From NCBI GenBank assembly GCA_023244815.1, contig JAHFLQ010000001.1, positions 31,037 through 95,036 of the forward strand: a stretch of 64,000 bases of DNA. Reading direction: 5' to 3'. This DNA comes from a bacterium. Lineage in GTDB: Bacteria; Patescibacteriota; Minisyncoccia; UBA6257; WO2-44-18. Positions 2,828 to 49,495 of this stretch are shown here, piece by piece. The number at the start of each line of letters is the position of its first letter. Positions within the stretch are counted from its first letter, which is position 1. The position numbers and the translations under genes are program-made. The notes under the pieces were generated by a model. It made no database searches, was not told where the DNA came from, and worked only from the letters and a program-made list of their open reading frames with translations.

Positions 2828-3121
2828 ATGAGCATAGAGAATCCAAAATTTGATCAAGGCCCGGAAGAAAATCCATCAGAAATGGTGGAAGAGGCGTTGC
2901 GTAAACTCAAAGAAGCTAAAAACTTGGCCTCTCCGGAGTTACGGAAAGAAATAGAGAAGATAGAGATTTTAGAAGGCGTTGGAGTGGAAAGCGTTCAGGA
3001 AGTTGAAGATATTTTAGGTGGCATTGAGGCTAGTCTTGAAGCGGACCCGGAAAACAAAGAGTTACTTGACCAGAAGACCTATTTTGCGGAAGTATTAAAG
3101 CAAATAAACGAATTAAAATGA
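2828..3121 (+). CDS. hypothetical small acidic coiled-coil protein
   Basis: 97 aa ORF 9 nt after the tyrS stop, Glu/Lys rich. Its N-terminus (ENPKFD) resembles that of the next ORF. Confidence 0.35.
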   Translation: MSIENPKFDQGPEENPSEMVEEALRKLKEAKNLASPELRKEIEKIEILEGVGVESVQEVEDILGGIEASLEADPENKELLDQKTYFAEVLKQINELK

Positions 3122-3336
3122 ATTTCGAAAATCCTGAATTAGAAAAGATAGAAGAACTTTGGAATAATCTATCCGAGGAAAAGAAAGAAAATTTAGAGAC
3201 GGGTCTTGGCATAGAAGAGGCAGAAACCCTTCATTTTTTGCTAAGCGGTGTGGAGATGACCAGCGATTCGCCCGACGCGGTTATTCTCTCTGACGAAGAG
3301 ATTGCAGAGAAGGTGCACGCTTTACTGGAAATGTAG
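3118..3336 (+). CDS. hypothetical small acidic protein, paralog of preceding ORF
   Basis: 72 aa, overlaps the previous stop by 4 nt. N-terminal MNFENPELE resembles MSIENPKFD of the previous ORF. Confidence 0.3.
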   Translation: MNFENPELEKIEELWNNLSEEKKENLETGLGIEEAETLHFLLSGVEMTSDSPDAVILSDEEIAEKVHALLEM

Positions 3337-4350: not shown

Positions 4351-6189
4351 ATGAAGAAATCGTTTTTTACAAACATTTTCTGGGCAGTAGTTGGCTTAAT
4401 GACGATTGCGCTTCTTTTTTCCGTTTTGTCCCAGTCGGGCGAGCCATCAGCGCATCTTACCGTCGATGGATTAGTTGCTAAAATTAATGCTGGGCAAGTA
4501 GAGAAAGTTACCGTTAACGGCAACAATCTTTCCATTGTACTGAAGGGGGGAGAGAAGGCGACCGCCAGAAAGGAAACCGAATCCGGCCTCACGGAAACTC
4601 TCAAAAATTATGGCGTAGATCCAAAAGCTCTGCAGGCGGTTTCTTTGGATTTTGAAGACGAGTCTGGGTTGAAATTCTGGCTGGGTATTCTTGTGCCGAC
4701 CATTCTGCCGCTCCTGATTATCGGCGTAATGTTTTGGCTGATTTTTCGGCGGTCGCAATCCGGGGCCTCGCAGGCGTTTACTTTCGGAAAGGCCAACCTG
4801 CGGCTTTTCGGGGCTTTTAAAGACAGGGCGAATTTTAAAGACGTCGCTGGGTTAAAGGAAGCCAAGCAGGAGCTGGAGGAGGTAGTGGATTTTCTTAAAA
4901 ACCCCAAAAAATACCTGGAAATCGGCGCCCGCATTCCCCGCGGTGTTTTGTTAATGGGCCAACCCGGTACTGGAAAAACCTTACTTGCCCGCGCCGTGGC
5001 CGGAGAAGCGAATGTTCCATTTTTCCACATTTCCGCGTCTGAATTCGTGGAAATGTTTGTGGGCGTCGGCGCCTCACGCACCCGAGACGCCTTTATGACC
5101 GCGAAAAAAGCCGCGCCGGCCATTTTATTCATTGATGAAATAGACGCTGTCGGAAGGGAGCGTGGGGCGGGTATCGGCGGCGGACACGATGAACGGGAAC
5201 AAACCCTCAACCAGATTCTAGTGGAAATGGACGGTTTCGAGCGGGATACTCGAGTGATTGTGATTGCCGCTACCAACCGGCCGGATATTTTGGACCGAGC
5301 GCTCCTGCGGCCGGGCCGGTTTGACCGACGGGTCGTTTTGGATCTGCCGGATATTAACGATAGGGAGGCGATTTTGAAAGTCCATGCTCGTGGCAAAGCG
5401 CTGGATAAGAACGTAGATTTGCGCCGCGTGGCGGTGCGGACGCCGGGATTTTCCGGTGCCGATCTGGCTAATCTAATGAACGAAGCGGCAATTCTTGCGG
5501 CTCGCAATAATCGTAAATTAGCCAGCCAGCAAGACCTGCTCGAATCCATCGAAAAGGTGATTCTTGGCCCGGAGCGCAAGGGACGGGCGATTTCGGAAAA
5601 AGAAAAGAAAATTACTGCCTACCACGAAGCTGGCCATGCATTGGTGGCGGTTAGCCTGAAAGACGCCGATCCGGTTCAGAAGGTGTCAATTATCAGCCGC
5701 GGTTCCGCCGGTGGTTATACGCTTAAATTACCCTTTGAAGAGAGTCGTTTACACACCAAATCCCAGTTTGTCGCCGATCTGGCCATGATGTTTGGCGGTT
5801 ATGCTTCGGAAAAAATGGTTTTCGGCGATATTACTACCGGCGCCTCCAACGATCTTAAGCAGGCGTCGGAGTTGGCGCGTCTGTTAGTGACTAAATATGG
5901 CATGAGCGAAAGGCTGGGGCCGCTGACTTTTGGCAAAACCGAGGAGTTGATATTTTTAGGCAAAGAAATTGGTTCCGAGCGGAATTATTCGGAAAAAGTA
6001 GCCGCAAAAATAGATGAAGAAGTTACGGGGATTGTTGAACGCGCTCATCAATTAGCCAAGAAGATTATTAATACTCGCAAGAAGGTCTTGGATGCGATTG
6101 CCCGCGCTTTGATAGAAAAAGAAACGTTGGAGCATGAAGATTTTTACGCGCTCCTGAAGCCTTTTAATTTAAAACCGCTCTCTATTTAG
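4351..6189 (+). CDS. ftsH: ATP-dependent zinc metalloprotease FtsH
   Basis: N-terminal TM, AAA+ Walker A GQPGTGKT, Walker B, second region of homology (SRH), and the zinc motif HEAGHALV. Confidence 0.95.
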
Positions 6190-6261
6190 TCGGCCCGGCA
6201 GGGATCGAACCTGCGACCCGCCGCTTATAAGACGGCTGCTCTGCCACTGAGCTACGGGCCG
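6190..6261 (-). tRNA. tRNA-Ile (anticodon UAU, unusual)
   Basis: Manual fold of the reverse complement: CGGCCCG ta GCTC agtggca GAGC a GCCGT CTTATAA GCGGC gggtc GCAGG TTCGATC CCTGC CGGGCCG A. Anticodon loop is CU-UAU-AA. Confidence 0.7.
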
Positions 6262-44808: not shown

Positions 44809-45000
44809 ATGGCCAACAAGAATCTTTTATTTTATGTAATTGGCGGCCTGCTATCGTTACTTTTGATAATTTATGTAGTTTATTTACTAAATTTTTTGGT
44901 TAGCCAGATATCCGTGGTTTCGGGCGCCGGTCCGTTGAATGTGCCTAAAATTGAGACTTACAACTTTGAAAAGTTTAGTCAGTTAAAGGGTTCGCAATAG
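44809..45000 (+). CDS. hypothetical small single-TM protein
   Basis: 63 aa from MANKNLLFYVIGGLLSLLLIIYVVYLL, starting 2 nt after the previous stop. Followed by a hairpin plus T-run near 45010-45050. Confidence 0.3.
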   Translation: MANKNLLFYVIGGLLSLLLIIYVVYLLNFLVSQISVVSGAGPLNVPKIETYNFEKFSQLKGSQ

Positions 45001-45052
45001 TTGATTTAGGTGACTAATTCGGTATACTAGCTATTATTGATTAGTCGGTTTT

Positions 45053-45149
45053 TGCGTGTGTAGTTCAGTGGGTCGAGGCCAGTAGGCCGAGACGGGTGGT
45101 CGATGTACCATATAATGGCCGCCCCGGGATGAACCTGTCCTGACCCAGC
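45053..45149 (+). pseudogene. tRNA-Ile 5'-half pseudo-copy with about 57-nt insertion in D-loop
   Basis: GCGTGTGTAGTTCAGTGGG...GAACCTGTCCTGACCCAGCAC parallels tRNA-Ile's GCGCATGTAGTTCAGTGGTAGAACGCTGTCCTGATAAGACAG. There is no complementary anticodon-stem 3' strand. Confidence 0.35.
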
Positions 45150-45221
45150 ACTAAAATATGCGCATGTAGTTCAGTGGTAGAACGCTGTCCTGATAAGACA
45201 GAGGTCGTAGGTTCGATTCCT
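45150..45221 (+). tRNA. tRNA-Ile (anticodon GAU)
   Basis: GCGCATG ta GTTC agtggta GAAC g CTGTC CTGATAA GACAG aggtc GTAGG TTCGATT CCTAC CATGCGC A(cc). Confidence 0.9.
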
Positions 45222-45324
45222 ACCATGCGCACCGCTATATTAGAATCGAACGCCGGAGCGATTTTTCCAGCAGGAAAAATCGTGAGGCGGTGCCCAGACC
45301 TCGGCGAGCGACGGCGAGCCGAGA

Positions 45325-45348
45325 GTCGCGGGTGATTCCTTCCACACG
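45325..45348 (+). other. tRNA-Ile 3'-end pseudo-copy
   Basis: GATTCCTTCCACACGCACCG parallels the tRNA-Ile 3' end GATTCCTACCATGCGCACCG. CACACGC is complementary to the GCGTGTG at 45053. Confidence 0.3.
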
Positions 45349-45386
45349 CACCGTGATTTAACTGAAAATGGCTTCTTTTAGCCCTA

Positions 45387-45421
45387 TTGACAAAATAGAA
45401 TTAGCGTGCTAAAGTAGGCTC
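45387..45421 (+). promoter_or_regulatory. sigma70-like promoter candidate
   Basis: TTGACA, a 17-nt spacer, then TAAAGT, upstream of the 3D-domain gene. Confidence 0.3.
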
Positions 45422-45483
45422 AAATAAAGGATCCCTTATGTGGGGGGTTTTTATTTCCTGCCACAGGCGGTAAACAAAAAAAC

Positions 45484-45945
45484 ATGAATATTTTTACTAC
45501 CAAATTCGTCCATGGAGCCATCGCCATAGCTCTGCTTGCGAATGCTTCTACCGGCTCAATCCCAGTAATTTACGCCGAAAGCGATCTCGGCCCAGTTTTT
45601 GAAAATGTCATTCAAGACACTTCAATTACCGCCAAGACCCCTTTGGAAGAGGGTGTTAAGCGTATTGCCGCGAAAGTGACCGCCTATTCTTCTACTCCGG
45701 ACCAGACCGACGATACGCCGTTTACTACAGCTTCCGGCGCTCATGTAGCGGACGGTATTGTAGCCGCTAACTTCTTGCCGCTTCATACCCACATCAAGAT
45801 TCCGGAATTATTTGGCGAAAAGGTTTTCGTAGTTGAGGACCGGATGGCCAAGCGCTTCCAAGACCGAGTGGATATTTGGATGCCGGATCGTTCCAGTGCT
45901 CGTAAGTTCGGTTTGCATAAAGCCGAAATCGTAGTGCTTCAGTAA
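45484..45945 (+). CDS. 3D (Asp-Asp-Asp) domain protein, MltA/RlpA-like double-psi beta-barrel, secreted
   Basis: Signal peptide, then TAYSSTPDQTDDTPFTTASG...V.DR...D.W, the 3D-domain signature. Confidence 0.55.
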   Translation: MNIFTTKFVHGAIAIALLANASTGSIPVIYAESDLGPVFENVIQDTSITAKTPLEEGVKRIAAKVTAYSSTPDQTDDTPFTTASGAHVADGIVAANFLPLHTHIKIPELFGEKVFVVEDRMAKRFQDRVDIWMPDRSSARKFGLHKAEIVVLQ

Positions 45946-47158: not shown

Positions 47159-48588
47159 TAGCGTTGAATTAGGATATCGCCAACTTTGATCTCGGTTTCC
47201 GTATCAAAAATCATCCCGCATTCACTGCCGACCGGCACGGACTTTATGTCTTTTTTGGATTGCTGAAGATTAACGATTTTTCCTTTGCCAACTACCGATG
47301 CTTTCCGTTCAATGTCCAGAGCGGCGTTGTTGGAAATAATTCCTTCCGTCACTTTGCCGCCGATAATCTGCTTGCCGGCTTTCTTGCCGAAAGTAGCGAG
47401 AATTTCCAGCTTGCCTCTGGCCATCGTTTTGCCGATGGAGAGCAGTGTCTCTTCCGCCACCTTTACAAGATCGTAGATAATTTCCGACTGCACAATTTTC
47501 ACATTTTGCGCGCGAGCTAATGTTTCCGCCGCTTTAGTGGCCGAGACGCGGAAGCCAATAATCAGCGATTTAGTGGAAAGCGCCAGTTTGACATCGCCGT
47601 CGGTGATGTCGCCGACCGACTCTTCAATGATTTCCAATGTCTGTCCCTGTTTTGTTGGTATCGCTTTGATTACTTGTGTAAGCGCCTCCAACGATCCGCT
47701 GACATCCGCTTTTAAAATTAAATTAACATTGCTTTCCTTAGCTTCTTTGCTCATCACTGCCCGCATCGCTTTTTTAGGAATAGGCTTTATTTCTTCTGCC
47801 CCGCCAATGTGGAATGGGTCACCGGCTTTTGGCAGAGTTTCAAATCCTATGACGACGGCGGGTGAGGATGGGCTAAGCGAATCAACTTTTTTGCCGAGGA
47901 AATTTTCCAATATCCTTACCTTGCCCTGAGCGGTGGCGGTCGCGATTGTGTCGCCGGTTTTGAGTGTGCCGTCGGTGATGATCAGGGTGGCAATAACGCC
48001 GCGGCGGCTGTCCATCGTAGATTCAAGCACGATGCCGCTCGCGTGATGGTTTGGATCAAAATCCAGACGCTCCACATCGGCAGCGAGTAGGATTAAATCC
48101 AAAAGATCGTTAATGCCCTCACCGGTTTTTGCCGACAGCGCTTGATAGCTGACACTGCCGCCATAGCCCTCCAGAAGCACGCCTGTCTGCATCAATTCAT
48201 TTTTGACTTTGGTAGTATCCGGAATGCGGTCAATCTTGTTGATGGCCACAATGAATGGCGTTTGTGATTCTTTGATAATTTTTAGAGCTTCTTTCGTCTG
48301 CGGCTGAACGCCATCGTCGGCGGCGACTACCAAAATGGCGATGTCGGCGATGTGGGCTCCCCGGGCTTTGATTTTAGAAAAGGCCTCATGGCCTGGTGTG
48401 TCAATAAAAGTAATATGTTGCGTTTGTCCTGAGCCAGTCGAAGAATGTTCTATTTCATAAGCGCCAACAGACTGGGTAATACCGCCGGCTTCTTTAGCGG
48501 CGACATTGGTTTTACGGATATAGTCGAGCAGGGTGGTTTTACCGTGATCGACGCTCCCCATTATTACTACGATCGGGGGTCTTTTCAT
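47158..48588 (-). CDS. infB: translation initiation factor IF-2 (N-terminally truncated short form, 476 aa)
   Basis: Begins directly at the G domain ([24 protein letters not shown]), followed by the beta-barrel and C2 domains. 1-nt overlap with rbfA. Confidence 0.9.
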
Positions 48589-48607
48589 GTGGTGTTATAA
48601 TAGTAGC

Positions 48608-49495
48608 ATGGCCAGTATTAAGCAACTTATCAAAGACTATCTTGATTATTTAGAGATCGAGAAAAACCGCTCGCCTAAGACACGTGAAAACTATGAACGC
48701 TACCTCCGTTCTTTTATAGACCACCAAAAGATAAAAGATAATAAAGATTTGACCTTGGATAAAATAAATAATTTTCGCATGGCCATTGCCCGTGAAAAGA
48801 ATTTAAAAAAAATAACCCAAGCCTACTACGTGATCGCTATCCGCAACTTTTTGAAATACTTGATCAAGAAAGATTATCATGCGGTGGCACCGGATAAGGT
48901 GGAATTGCCGAAGATTCCGCAGCGGCAGATTGAAATTATAGATGTTGCTGATCTGGAGCGGCTGTTAGCCGCTCCCTCGGGATCAGAATTGCGCGGTCTC
49001 CGAGACAAGGCAATTTTGGAACTACTTTTTTCTACCGGCCTTCGTTTGTCGGAGTTGTGCGGCTTGAATCGCTACTTAAATTTCGAACGGGGAGAATTAA
49101 CCGTGCGTGGGAAGGGCGAGAAATTGCGGTTGGTTTTCGTCTCCGATACCGCCAACAAAGCCCTAAAAGAATATTTAGATAAACGGCCTGACGCCCACGA
49201 ACATCTTTTTGTCAGCCTGACAAAGAATGGCAAAGTGATCGGCAAGATCACGCCTCGTTCGGTCCAGCGGTTAGTCAGCTACTACGCGAGGAAGGCCGGC
49301 ATCACCGAACGCATCACGCCGCATGGCCTCCGCCATCTTTTCGCCACCGACTTGCTCATGAACGGCGCGGACCTCCGCTCGGTGCAGGAATTACTCGGCC
49401 ACGCCAATGTTTCCACGACGCAGGTTTATACTCACCTTACCAACAAGCATCTCAAAGAAGTCCACGAGGCCTTTCACGGCAAGCAAAGAGATTAA
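48608..49495 (+). CDS. tyrosine site-specific recombinase XerC/XerD family
   Basis: N-terminal SAM-like domain. Catalytic R..HxxR..Y residues (LRHLFATDLL...GHANVSTTQVYTHL). Confidence 0.85.
   Translation: MASIKQLIKDYLDYLEIEKNRSPKTRENYERYLRSFIDHQKIKDNKDLTLDKINNFRMAIAREKNLKKITQAYYVIAIRNFLKYLIKKDYHAVAPDKVELPKIPQRQIEIIDVADLERLLAAPSGSELRGLRDKAILELLFSTGLRLSELCGLNRYLNFERGELTVRGKGEKLRLVFVSDTANKALKEYLDKRPDAHEHLFVSLTKNGKVIGKITPRSVQRLVSYYARKAGITERITPHGLRHLFATDLLMNGADLRSVQELLGHANVSTTQVYTHLTNKHLKEVHEAFHGKQRD

Follow-up and report, generated by a model that had tools for sequence, protein, structure and literature searches.

A working tRNA-Ile gene inside the remains of an older tRNA-Ile gene in a Patescibacteria genome: candidate footprint of small cassettes that invade tRNA genes

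The window analyzed here is a 64-kb stretch of contig JAHFLQ010000001.1 (assembly GCA_023244815.1, positions 31,037 to 95,036, forward strand) from a bacterium of the phylum Patescibacteriota. Position numbers are those of this window, and related loci that were compared with it are designated by L numbers. The gene content of the window includes a short IF-2, TopA, DprA, and a PilO-like gene and, together with the origin of the DprA homologues, points to the Patescibacteria/Paceibacteria. ARAGORN identified 10 tRNA genes, tRNA-Ile(GAU) among them. This tRNA is canonical, with an ARAGORN call of tRNA-Ile(gat), a score of 78.7 bits against the Rfam tRNA threshold of 29, acceptor strands GCGCATG/CATGCGC, and a T stem of GTAGG/CCTAC; its CCA is incompletely encoded (..ACCg). 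A preliminary description of the locus, made from the sequence alone, was right that the tRNA is intact but placed it at 45150-45221, about 10 nt too low. On both sides of this inner gene lie pieces of a second tRNA-Ile, so that the locus reads as follows.

45001-45028, + strand: promoter-like site TTGATT-16-TATACT of the resident tRNA-Ile gene (-10 at 45023-45028), now 5' of the outer half
45054-45072, + strand: outer (resident) tRNA-Ile, nt 1 to ~19/20 (GCGTGTGTAGTTCAGTGGG)
45073-45092, + strand: hp1, first hairpin of the D-loop insert, with tandem G.A/A.G mismatches in the stem and a basal pair with G45072 (from folds)
45093-45126, + strand: hp2, second hairpin of the D-loop insert, with a GGGYG/CRCCC base and an A/T-rich loop containing TATAAT (from folds)
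45127-45143, + strand: remainder of the outer 5' half, GGAT, D-stem 3' strand GAAC, (C)CTGTC, and CTGA (by sequence reading)
45144-45159, + strand: 5' arm of the cassette inverted repeat plus spacer, CCCAGCAC TAAAATAT (by homology to L009 and L166)
45160-45233, + strand: inner intact tRNA-Ile(GAU), the probable working gene (ARAGORN; Rfam match at 45160-45231, 78.7 bits)
45234-45242, + strand: spacer GCTATATTA (by sequence reading)
45243-45333, + strand: R1, a three-way-junction element (from folds, a consensus structure, and a covariance model)
45334-45352, + strand: tail, a displaced copy of resident tRNA-Ile nt 57-76 (from an end-match search)

The outer 5' half begins with the acceptor 5' strand GCGTGTG, U8-A9, the D-stem 5' strand GTTC, and the D-loop sequence AGTGGG (45054-45072). 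It resumes 3' of the D-loop insert, where GAACCTGTCCTGACCCAGCAC (45131-45151) is found; there, (C)CTGTC is the anticodon-stem 5' strand, CTGA is loop nt 32-35, and the tRNA sequence stops exactly at anticodon position 35. The preliminary description had thus correctly seen an upstream copy of the 5' half with a D-loop insertion, which spans 45054-45143, but the insert measures 58 nt rather than 57 and forms two hairpins. Downstream, GATTCCTTCCACACGCACCG (45334-45353) begins 101 nt past the inner tRNA, in agreement with the 3'-end copy reported about 100 bp away, and consists of GATT, the T-stem 3' strand CCTTC, the acceptor 3' strand CACACGC, A73, and CC. The window has lost outer nt 36-56 as well as the 3' partner arm of the inverted repeat. 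The spacer GCTATATTA is weakly A/U-complementary to TAAAATAT on the 5' side of the tRNA, a pairing that is absent from the minimum free energy (MFE) fold.

Searches with the tRNA ends each returned a single other match in the 64 kb: 45054-45071 for the first 18 nt (2 mismatches, up to 3 allowed) and 45334-45352 for the last 19 nt (3 mismatches). For both ends, a second match was seen in 0 of 100 shuffles. The outer acceptor strands GCGTGTG (45054-45060) and CACACGC, which had been described as perfectly complementary, do pair at 7 of 7 positions, and they differ from the inner acceptor stem by two compensatory base-pair switches. In the MFE fold of 45054-45352 (299 nt, -134.9 kcal/mol, z = -7.0 versus shuffles), the outer ends are paired. 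The single extra end matches, the complete pairing, and the z score together indicate that the layout is real and not due to chance. The similarity to the tRNA also extends beyond the short strings first quoted: in the 5' piece it reaches loop nt 32-35 and takes in the D-stem 3' strand and the anticodon-stem 5' strand, and in the 3' piece the extension is only weak. BLAST of the 5' element and R1 against the window revealed no second copy of either in 64 kb.

Relatives were found through contigs encoding homologues of DprA, whose gene adjoins the locus, yielding nine relatives with 60-70% DprA identity; the locus is identical in two other assemblies. A genome-collection scan with DprA gave at least ~18 more distant Paceibacteria tRNA-Ile loci, with the closest relatives not among the matches listed. 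The intact tRNA-Ile at the orthologous site in L004, L011, L016, L014, L170, and L171 carries GCGTGTG/CACACGC and GAAGG/CCTTC, which is the outer type of the window, and 45054-45072 is identical to the intact tRNA-Ile of L004, L011, L016, L170, and L171. The inner allele (GCGCATG, GTAGG/CCTAC) matches the tRNA-Ile of the distant L080 and not the resident type of the clade. The motif TATACT plus AGCTA(A/T)TATTG precedes the intact tRNA by the same distance in L004, L011, L170, and L171; in the window and in L009, it precedes the outer 5' half. Allele type and promoter position therefore identify the outer pieces as the ends of the resident gene and the inner gene as a different allele. The outer acceptor strands pair because both pieces are ends of the resident allele. 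Sequence comparison thus gives good support to the view that a working tRNA-Ile(GAU) gene lies inside the wreck of an older resident tRNA-Ile gene.

Partial and clean states of the locus were mapped on the DprA tree. L170, among the closest relatives by DprA identity (67-69%), has neither flanking element, though its tRNA and promoter are the same; the flank directly after its tRNA is the flank found after the tail in L004. L004 has the 3' element and tail only, without any 5' pseudo-half. L171 has kept the 3' arm (..TTTAGTACGGGGCAAG|TAAGACAG..), outer nt 36-60, the element, and the tail, with neither a 5' arm nor a 5' element. The pairing of the outer acceptor strands is lost in L009. There, the whole unit from promoter to tail (2860-3290) is inverted relative to the neighboring genes. 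On its two sides lie the end of a small upstream open reading frame (ORF) and an imperfect, inverted repetition of that end (TTGAGTTGCAGATAA versus TTATCGCAACTGCTCAA). When the window is compared with L009, the 5' element shows 86% identity; for R1 plus tail, compared with L004, the figure is 78%. In the same comparisons, the tRNA itself is 90-92% identical and the adjoining intergenic DNA is 50-51% identical, the level of shuffled sequence. Given intergenic DNA that is randomized, the supposed pseudo-copies are therefore not drifting freely.

Undamaged forms of the nested arrangement are found in L166 and L017. The outer 5' part of L166 reads GCGAGTG TA GTTC AGTGGG, hp1, hp2, and GGAA GAAC G CTGTC CTGA; the insert that follows reads CCCCGCACTAAAAATTTCTT AAATAT, the inner tRNA-Ile, and ATAAAA AAGAAATTTTAGTGCGGGG CACG; and the outer 3' part reads TAA GACAG AGGTC GAAGG TTCGATT CCTTC CACTCGC A CCA. 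The inner tRNA of L166 is carried on a 19-bp inverted-repeat stem, in which the 5' arm CCCCGCACTAAAAATTTCTTAAATAT pairs with AAGAAATTTTAGTGCGGGG downstream of the tRNA, and it is inserted exactly between anticodon nt 35 and 36, with ~55 nt of non-tRNA sequence in the insert. When the D-loop and 35/36 inserts are removed, the outer gene of L166 is a perfect tRNA-Ile(GAU) by ARAGORN, encoded CCA included, and that of L017 is also called tRNA-Ile(GAU), with one T-stem mismatch and one extra nucleotide. The sequences CCCAGCACTAAAATAT in the window and CCCCGCACTAAAATAT in L009 are homologous to the 5' arm of the L166 stem, and the break after CTGA is common to the window, L009, L017, L025, and L166. 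The outer copies of these five loci form a decay continuum, from L166 through L017, L025, and the window to L009. R1 is absent from L166 and L017, and the inner tRNAs differ among all five nested Ile loci (duplicate contigs uncounted). Among the options raised in the preliminary description, the one favored by the resident alleles and by the outer genes of L166 and L017 that are split at 35/36 is that a segment with a new tRNA-Ile copy entered an older tRNA gene and divided it. A metagenome scan at the Joint Genome Institute (JGI) with a D-loop-insert/junction pattern gave 76 matches, of which two were real (L096, which corresponds to L017, and L166) and the rest were due to chance, the pattern being too narrow. 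A 14-base junction pattern run on viral contigs gave 120 chance matches and no real one.

The preliminary description had not seen that the D-loop insert is a conserved module, that the displaced 3' end is the tail of an element also present in relatives without a 5' pseudo-half, or that the layout occurs at other tRNAs. The hp1-hp2 module is present in the window, L009, L025, L017, L166, and a tRNA-Val 5' remnant in L019, and the two hairpins abut directly in all six. It is placed after AGUGG(G) and is followed by GGRAGA and the D-stem 3' strand. Its stems covary, with C-G or U-A at the base of hp1 and variable upper pairs above GGGYG/CRCCC in hp2, and the tandem G.A mismatches of hp1 are kept in three genomes. 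The tRNA-Val pseudo-half of L019 (~3040-3200, - strand) lies 166 nt upstream of an intact tRNA-Val(GAC), carries AAATTTTACGAAGTAAAATTT in hp1, and has no 3' partner. In the window, the hp2 loop (45108-45120) includes TATAAT, which matches the -10 hexamer perfectly; its counterpart is TGCTATAAT, an extended -10, in L009 and TAAAAT in L025 and L166. Judged by its sequence, this hexamer may be an internal promoter for the inner tRNA.

R1 and its tail occupy ~110 nt, and the three-way junction is closed by GAAUC/GAUUC, where GAATC at 45243-45247 pairs with GATTC at 45334-45338, the start of the displaced end. Its 5' arm, GAATCGAAC, is antisense to the T loop of the tRNA; arm A has an AGCA loop, and arm B has GCGAGCGACGGCGAGC. 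The outer 3' end in the window is thus the tail of a separate R1 element and not simply the partner half of a split gene. A consensus structure was built from five members, and the resulting covariance model then found two more. Over the seven sequences, 86.9% of cells are paired and 19 of 31 pairs have changed on both sides; these covariation values were reached in 0 of 500 shuffles, and slid controls gave ~38%. The independent members scored 22.7 bits (L026) and 25.8 bits (L031, topA), and the window, whose sequence is in the seed, scored 103 bits. The model had one match only in the whole window, at an element with a 5' arm complementary to the displaced gene end and with that end directly after it.

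Members of the R1 family lie 3' of tRNA-Ile (the window, L004, L009, and L031), tRNA-Leu(gag) (L031), tRNA-Leu(caa) (L026), and the topA stop codon (L031), and R1-like layouts lie 3' of tRNA-Leu(taa) in L009, tRNA-Thr in L029, and tRNA-Asn in L296. In every case, the 5' arm is complementary to the first 7-10 nt of the displaced copy. In L171, the outer 3' half has a longer version of the element in its T loop, placed after nt 60. The topA member (L031 7087-7300, + strand) follows the stop codon immediately, has a CTGC-loop hairpin before it, and is followed by a displaced topA end of 72 nt that is 80% identical to the original, with mostly synonymous differences, and encodes nearly the same peptide. 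An R1 element behind topA shows that the family is not tRNA specific. Integron attC sites, IS200/IS605 ends, TnpB omega-RNA, and retron non-coding RNA were set aside as identities for R1, since R1 has no adjacent protein gene, no family match, and a different architecture.

The same layout is seen at other tRNAs. At tRNA-Thr, tRNA-Asn, and tRNA-His loci, a 5' remnant that bears a hairpin insert breaks off in the D loop or the anticodon loop, and a GIY-YIG ORF and then a complete tRNA come after it, as follows.

L029 1380-1860: tRNA-Thr locus with GIY-YIG ORF
L296 1400-2000: tRNA-Asn locus with GIY-YIG ORF
L297/L298 1400-1820: tRNA-Asn locus with GIY-YIG ORF
L295 1440-1881: tRNA-His locus with GIY-YIG ORF

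In L029, the 5' remnant has a 22-nt hairpin in its D arm and is broken in the anticodon loop at the start codon of an 86-amino-acid GIY-YIG ORF (Pfam E = 1.3e-13), the start codon itself being made by remnant anticodon-loop nt 32-34. Downstream of the intact tRNA lie an R1-like element and, repeated exactly, the 3' end of the tRNA. Homologues of this ORF have the same layout at tRNA-Asn (L296 and L297/L298) and tRNA-His (L295). Where the tRNA is Thr or Asn, the ORF terminates in a TAG supplied by tRNA U8-A9-G10. The ORFs are 80-90 amino acids long and comprise the catalytic domain only, with no evident DNA-binding domain. The window has the remnant part of this layout, with a D-arm hairpin insert in 45054-45143 and then a complete tRNA at 45160-45233; a motif scan of the window found no GIY-YIG ORF, and only 16 nt separate remnant and tRNA. 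In L031 (2340-2530, - strand), a tRNA-Val(GAC) is nested in an older tRNA-Val whose 5' half stops at 35/36 without a D-loop insert, whose acceptor strands GGGCGTT/AACGCCC pair, and whose T loop holds the 20-nt palindrome CCTGCCTGCCAGCAGGCAGG (CCTGCC..GGCAGG). The flanks at these other tRNAs are copies of those tRNAs and not generic sequence; in that sense, the objection that similar flanks around unrelated tRNAs would indicate a generic promoter or terminator context does not apply.

Short, GC-rich palindromes of the types CCTGCC(N)GGCAGG and CCCGCC(N)GGCGGG recur (L024 2151, L025 7861, L034 7989, L046 3494, and L295-L297), often within tRNA remnants or beside tRNA genes; they could represent a REP-like repeat or a site for a nuclease. 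In L025 (7810-8040, + strand), a tRNA-Leu(caa) is preceded by a decayed 5' remnant and CCTGCC palindromes, and downstream of it lies GACTCCCACCCCGGGCAC, the 3' end of a different tRNA-Leu type.

In summary of the structure, the resident gene is interrupted at loop positions, with hp1-hp2 in the D loop (~nt 20), the tRNA cassette at 35/36, and R1 with the displaced 3' end, and each of the two module families is seen again at other genes and in other genomes, its ends fitting the target in question. With a probability of about 0.6, we consider the locus to be the mark left by small cassettes that enter tRNA genes and carry a replacement with them. The recurring small folded insertions appear to be an undescribed kind of gene-invading element. 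A single transcript would run from the resident promoter (-10 at 45023-45028) through a 106-nt folded leader, the inner tRNA, and R1, and RNase P and a 3' endonuclease would release the tRNA, leaving the flanks as by-products. Break repair or recombination would insert copies of the cassettes into tRNA genes, the flanks derived from tRNA would serve as homology arms, and the replacement gene brought along would keep the invasion from being lethal. Deletion between the direct repeats formed by outer and inner halves could then produce the partial forms and, finally, a clean tRNA gene.

Homing by endonuclease genes provides an analogy for such copying. In organelle genomes, some insertions of homing endonuclease genes duplicate the end of the invaded gene. 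Phage T4 SegB is encoded by a free-standing GIY-YIG homing endonuclease gene within a tRNA gene cluster and mediates intron-less homing (PMC2330249). By analogy, the break may be supplied by a small GIY-YIG nuclease such as that encoded in the ORF-bearing relatives. Like a free-standing homing gene, the ORF of the Thr, Asn, and His relatives sits exactly between the remnant and the new tRNA copy, the flanking gene sequence could act as homology arms, and the displaced gene end becomes a pseudo-copy (as at topA in L031). Unlike such genes, the window cassette has no ORF, the inner copy would remain a target, and the predicted ORFs of the relatives consist of the catalytic domain alone.

Several observations weigh against the invasion of tRNA genes by replacement-bearing cassettes. 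No nuclease or recombinase is encoded within the unit of the window or in any Ile cassette examined, and for that reason mobility is inferred. All five nested Ile loci have different inner tRNAs, a poor fit to one recently spreading cassette, and an endonuclease that recognizes the tRNA would cut the inner copy as well. The 86% and 78% conservation would fit purifying selection for a host function equally well as selection on a selfish element or recent transfer. Finally, the sample is small, with five nested Ile loci and two true matches from the JGI metagenome scan.

If the flanks serve the host, they could be an exapted processing scaffold, in which a 5' leader (the pseudo-half with hp1-hp2) and a 3' trailer (R1 with its tail) are now kept to help make the inner tRNA. 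The outer acceptor strands might close the precursor in the manner of an rRNA processing stem or present a tRNA-like handle to RNase P or 3' nucleases, and hp2 might contribute an internal promoter. Consistent with this view, the flanks are conserved about like the tRNA itself amid randomized intergenic DNA, their stems covary, the tandem G.A mismatches of hp1 are an RNA-type motif, the outer ends are paired in the MFE fold, and the hp2 loop has TATAAT in the window and L009 and TAAAAT in L025 and L166. However, the outer acceptor pairing is broken in L009, the 5' element is absent from L171 and L004, R1 is absent from L166 and L017, and L170 has neither element and yet the same tRNA and promoter; moreover, R1 is also found behind the protein gene topA, where tRNA processing is irrelevant. 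We therefore regard a processing scaffold as unlikely, and the long processing stem proposed in the preliminary description, although possible, is not conserved. Another proposal is that the nested gene is alive in the L166 form, with the outer tRNA still matured and the 35/36 insert acting as an intron with a second tRNA gene in it. The inner tRNA would be cut out by RNase P and RNase Z, the outer halves would be trimmed and ligated by some further pathway, and the D-loop (and T-loop) modules would be enlargements that the tRNA tolerates at flipped-out positions. The outer gene of L166 is indeed flawless and that of L017 nearly so, and the inserts are at structurally permissive positions (D-loop ~nt 20 and T-loop nt 56-60). 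Archaeal multi-intron and split tRNA genes are spliced at bulge-helix-bulge motifs. Like these, the loci studied here have interruptions in the D, anticodon, and T loops and intron ends that pair with exon nucleotides; the 3' end of the intron can pair with C32-U33-G34 in a helix-bulge layout loosely like the archaeal motif. Inspected by hand, L017, L025, L166, and L171 show a helix of 2-3 bp (CUG/CAG) with one bulge of 1 nt (A35) and another of 3-4 nt, and the cuts would fall at the edges of the bulges; this is not the canonical 3-4-3 arrangement. Unlike the archaeal genes, the host is bacterial, with no known endonuclease for the purpose, an intact tRNA makes the outer one redundant, and the outer copies decay in most lineages. 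To our knowledge, product ends of RNase P and RNase Z are not joined by known bacterial RNA ligases such as RtcB. Group I introns occur at 35/36 of Patescibacteria tRNA genes and, like the elements described here, are missed by standard annotation (PMC13011429), which makes 35/36 a proven intron site in the same phylum, an unusual insertion point shared with the present loci. Unlike those introns, the insert here has no group I core, is too short, and contains a whole tRNA, and the 5' exon ends in A35 (CTGA|) rather than U in the window, L009, L017, L025, and L166, so that self-splicing is not expected. The Rfam group I intron model (Intron_gpI) had no match in 44900-45500 (E <= 10), in 10 loci (gathering score), or in L166, L171, L011, and L096 (E <= 1). 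With outer nt 36-56 absent, a living nested gene is inapplicable to the window, and for L166 and L017 we consider it improbable.

Scars of tyrosine integrases, left by islands or phages that entered at anticodon-loop and T-loop sublocations, duplicated attL/attR, and were later almost totally deleted, appear no more credible than a living nested gene. The anticodon loop and the T loop are the classical crossover sublocations for integration into tRNA genes, and the remnants here end and begin in these loops. An XerC/D-type recombinase gene lies 3 kb away (48587-49495), but it is syntenic housekeeping. The 3' end of the tRNA is directly repeated, as tail 45334-45352 copies tRNA nt 57-76 and the same is seen in L004, L031, and L029; an att duplication, as originally suggested, is thus a formally correct description of the tail. 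Yet there is no integrase within the unit or in any of ~15 loci, and between the repeats there is no element body, just 100-270 nt of non-coding sequence that is conserved and covarying across genomes and targets, unlike deletion scars. Integrative elements with tRNA genes as targets are a source of partial tRNA genes (PMC9897764), and tRNA fragments of that origin are common. As with integrative elements that regenerate the tRNA, a working tRNA is kept, the displaced 3' end (T loop to end) lies beyond the insert, and the element-borne and resident copies can be different alleles. The differences are that the insert here is a ~110-nt covarying three-way junction, that 5' remnants occur besides 3' ones, that the 5' arm of the element complements its target, and that a complete tRNA is nested at 35/36 (L166), where integration in the anticodon loop would give hybrid tRNAs at the element ends. 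Least probable of all is a local tandem duplication followed by decay of the outer copies, also among the options first listed. It would account for direct repeats of tRNA parts on both sides, but it would require three copies and two precise deletions, and it does not explain contiguous outer halves cleanly split at 35/36 with inverted-repeat arms (L166 and L017), different inner and outer alleles, or the same modules at Val, Leu, and topA.

Two further candidates were set aside. A split or trans-spliced outer tRNA in the window is not supported, since outer nt 36-56 and a bulge-helix-bulge motif are absent, and the joined outer pieces gave no tRNA call by ARAGORN. A transfer-messenger RNA (tmRNA), including the two-piece form, was dismissed because there was no ARAGORN tmRNA call and no Rfam match and because G3-C70 is not the alanine identity pair. 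Rfam searches of the whole window and 10 loci (gathering score), of 44900-45500 (E <= 10), and of four loci (E <= 1) returned only tRNA and an antisense look-alike; therefore, group I introns, tmRNA, YrlA, ribozymes, and omega-RNA-type families are not supported.

If replacement-bearing cassettes are indeed responsible, tRNA genes of the Candidate Phyla Radiation (CPR) would be repeatedly invaded by very small structured cassettes that bring a replacement tRNA or gene end and so spare the host. This would explain stray tRNA halves in CPR genomes, would call for caution among annotators, and would mean that mobile elements can reside in an essential RNA gene by a third route, in addition to those of self-splicing introns and of att copies borne by integrase elements. 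Invading an essential gene with a replacement is a known principle; the nested tRNA, the loop-specific modules, and the R1 arm would be the new elements. A literature search on nested or invaded bacterial tRNA genes, bulge-helix-bulge motifs in Patescibacteria, and GIY-YIG genes with tRNA remnants found nothing describing the layout, and neither Rfam nor the literature gave a match for a tRNA nested in an anticodon loop, loop-specific structured modules, or R1 with its target-complementary arm. Two RNA/DNA motif families, hp1-hp2 and R1, emerge from the analysis, together with a group of very small GIY-YIG genes whose coding sequence runs into the 5' end of a tRNA. With arms that are complementary to their targets, one may ask whether base pairing guides the targeting. 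The flawless outer genes of L166 and L017 make the maturation of a tRNA-interrupted tRNA in bacteria directly testable; if they do mature, they would represent a novel type of bacterial tRNA intron in which one tRNA is housed by another, and the window would be a dead descendant of this arrangement.

Two other features of the window were recorded. The next gene (45484-45945) encodes 153 amino acids behind a strong promoter, TTGACA-17-TAAAGT. Its leader contains a conserved hairpin and U-run at 45387-45456 (GATCCC..GGGGG TTTTTATT) that is kept in L004, L009, L011, and L170, even in L009 with its inverted tRNA unit, and that may be a leader attenuator or a riboswitch-like element. At 6189-6261 (- strand) lies a tRNA-Ile with anticodon UAU, an uncommon bacterial route to reading AUA compared with the lysidine-modified CAU tRNA.

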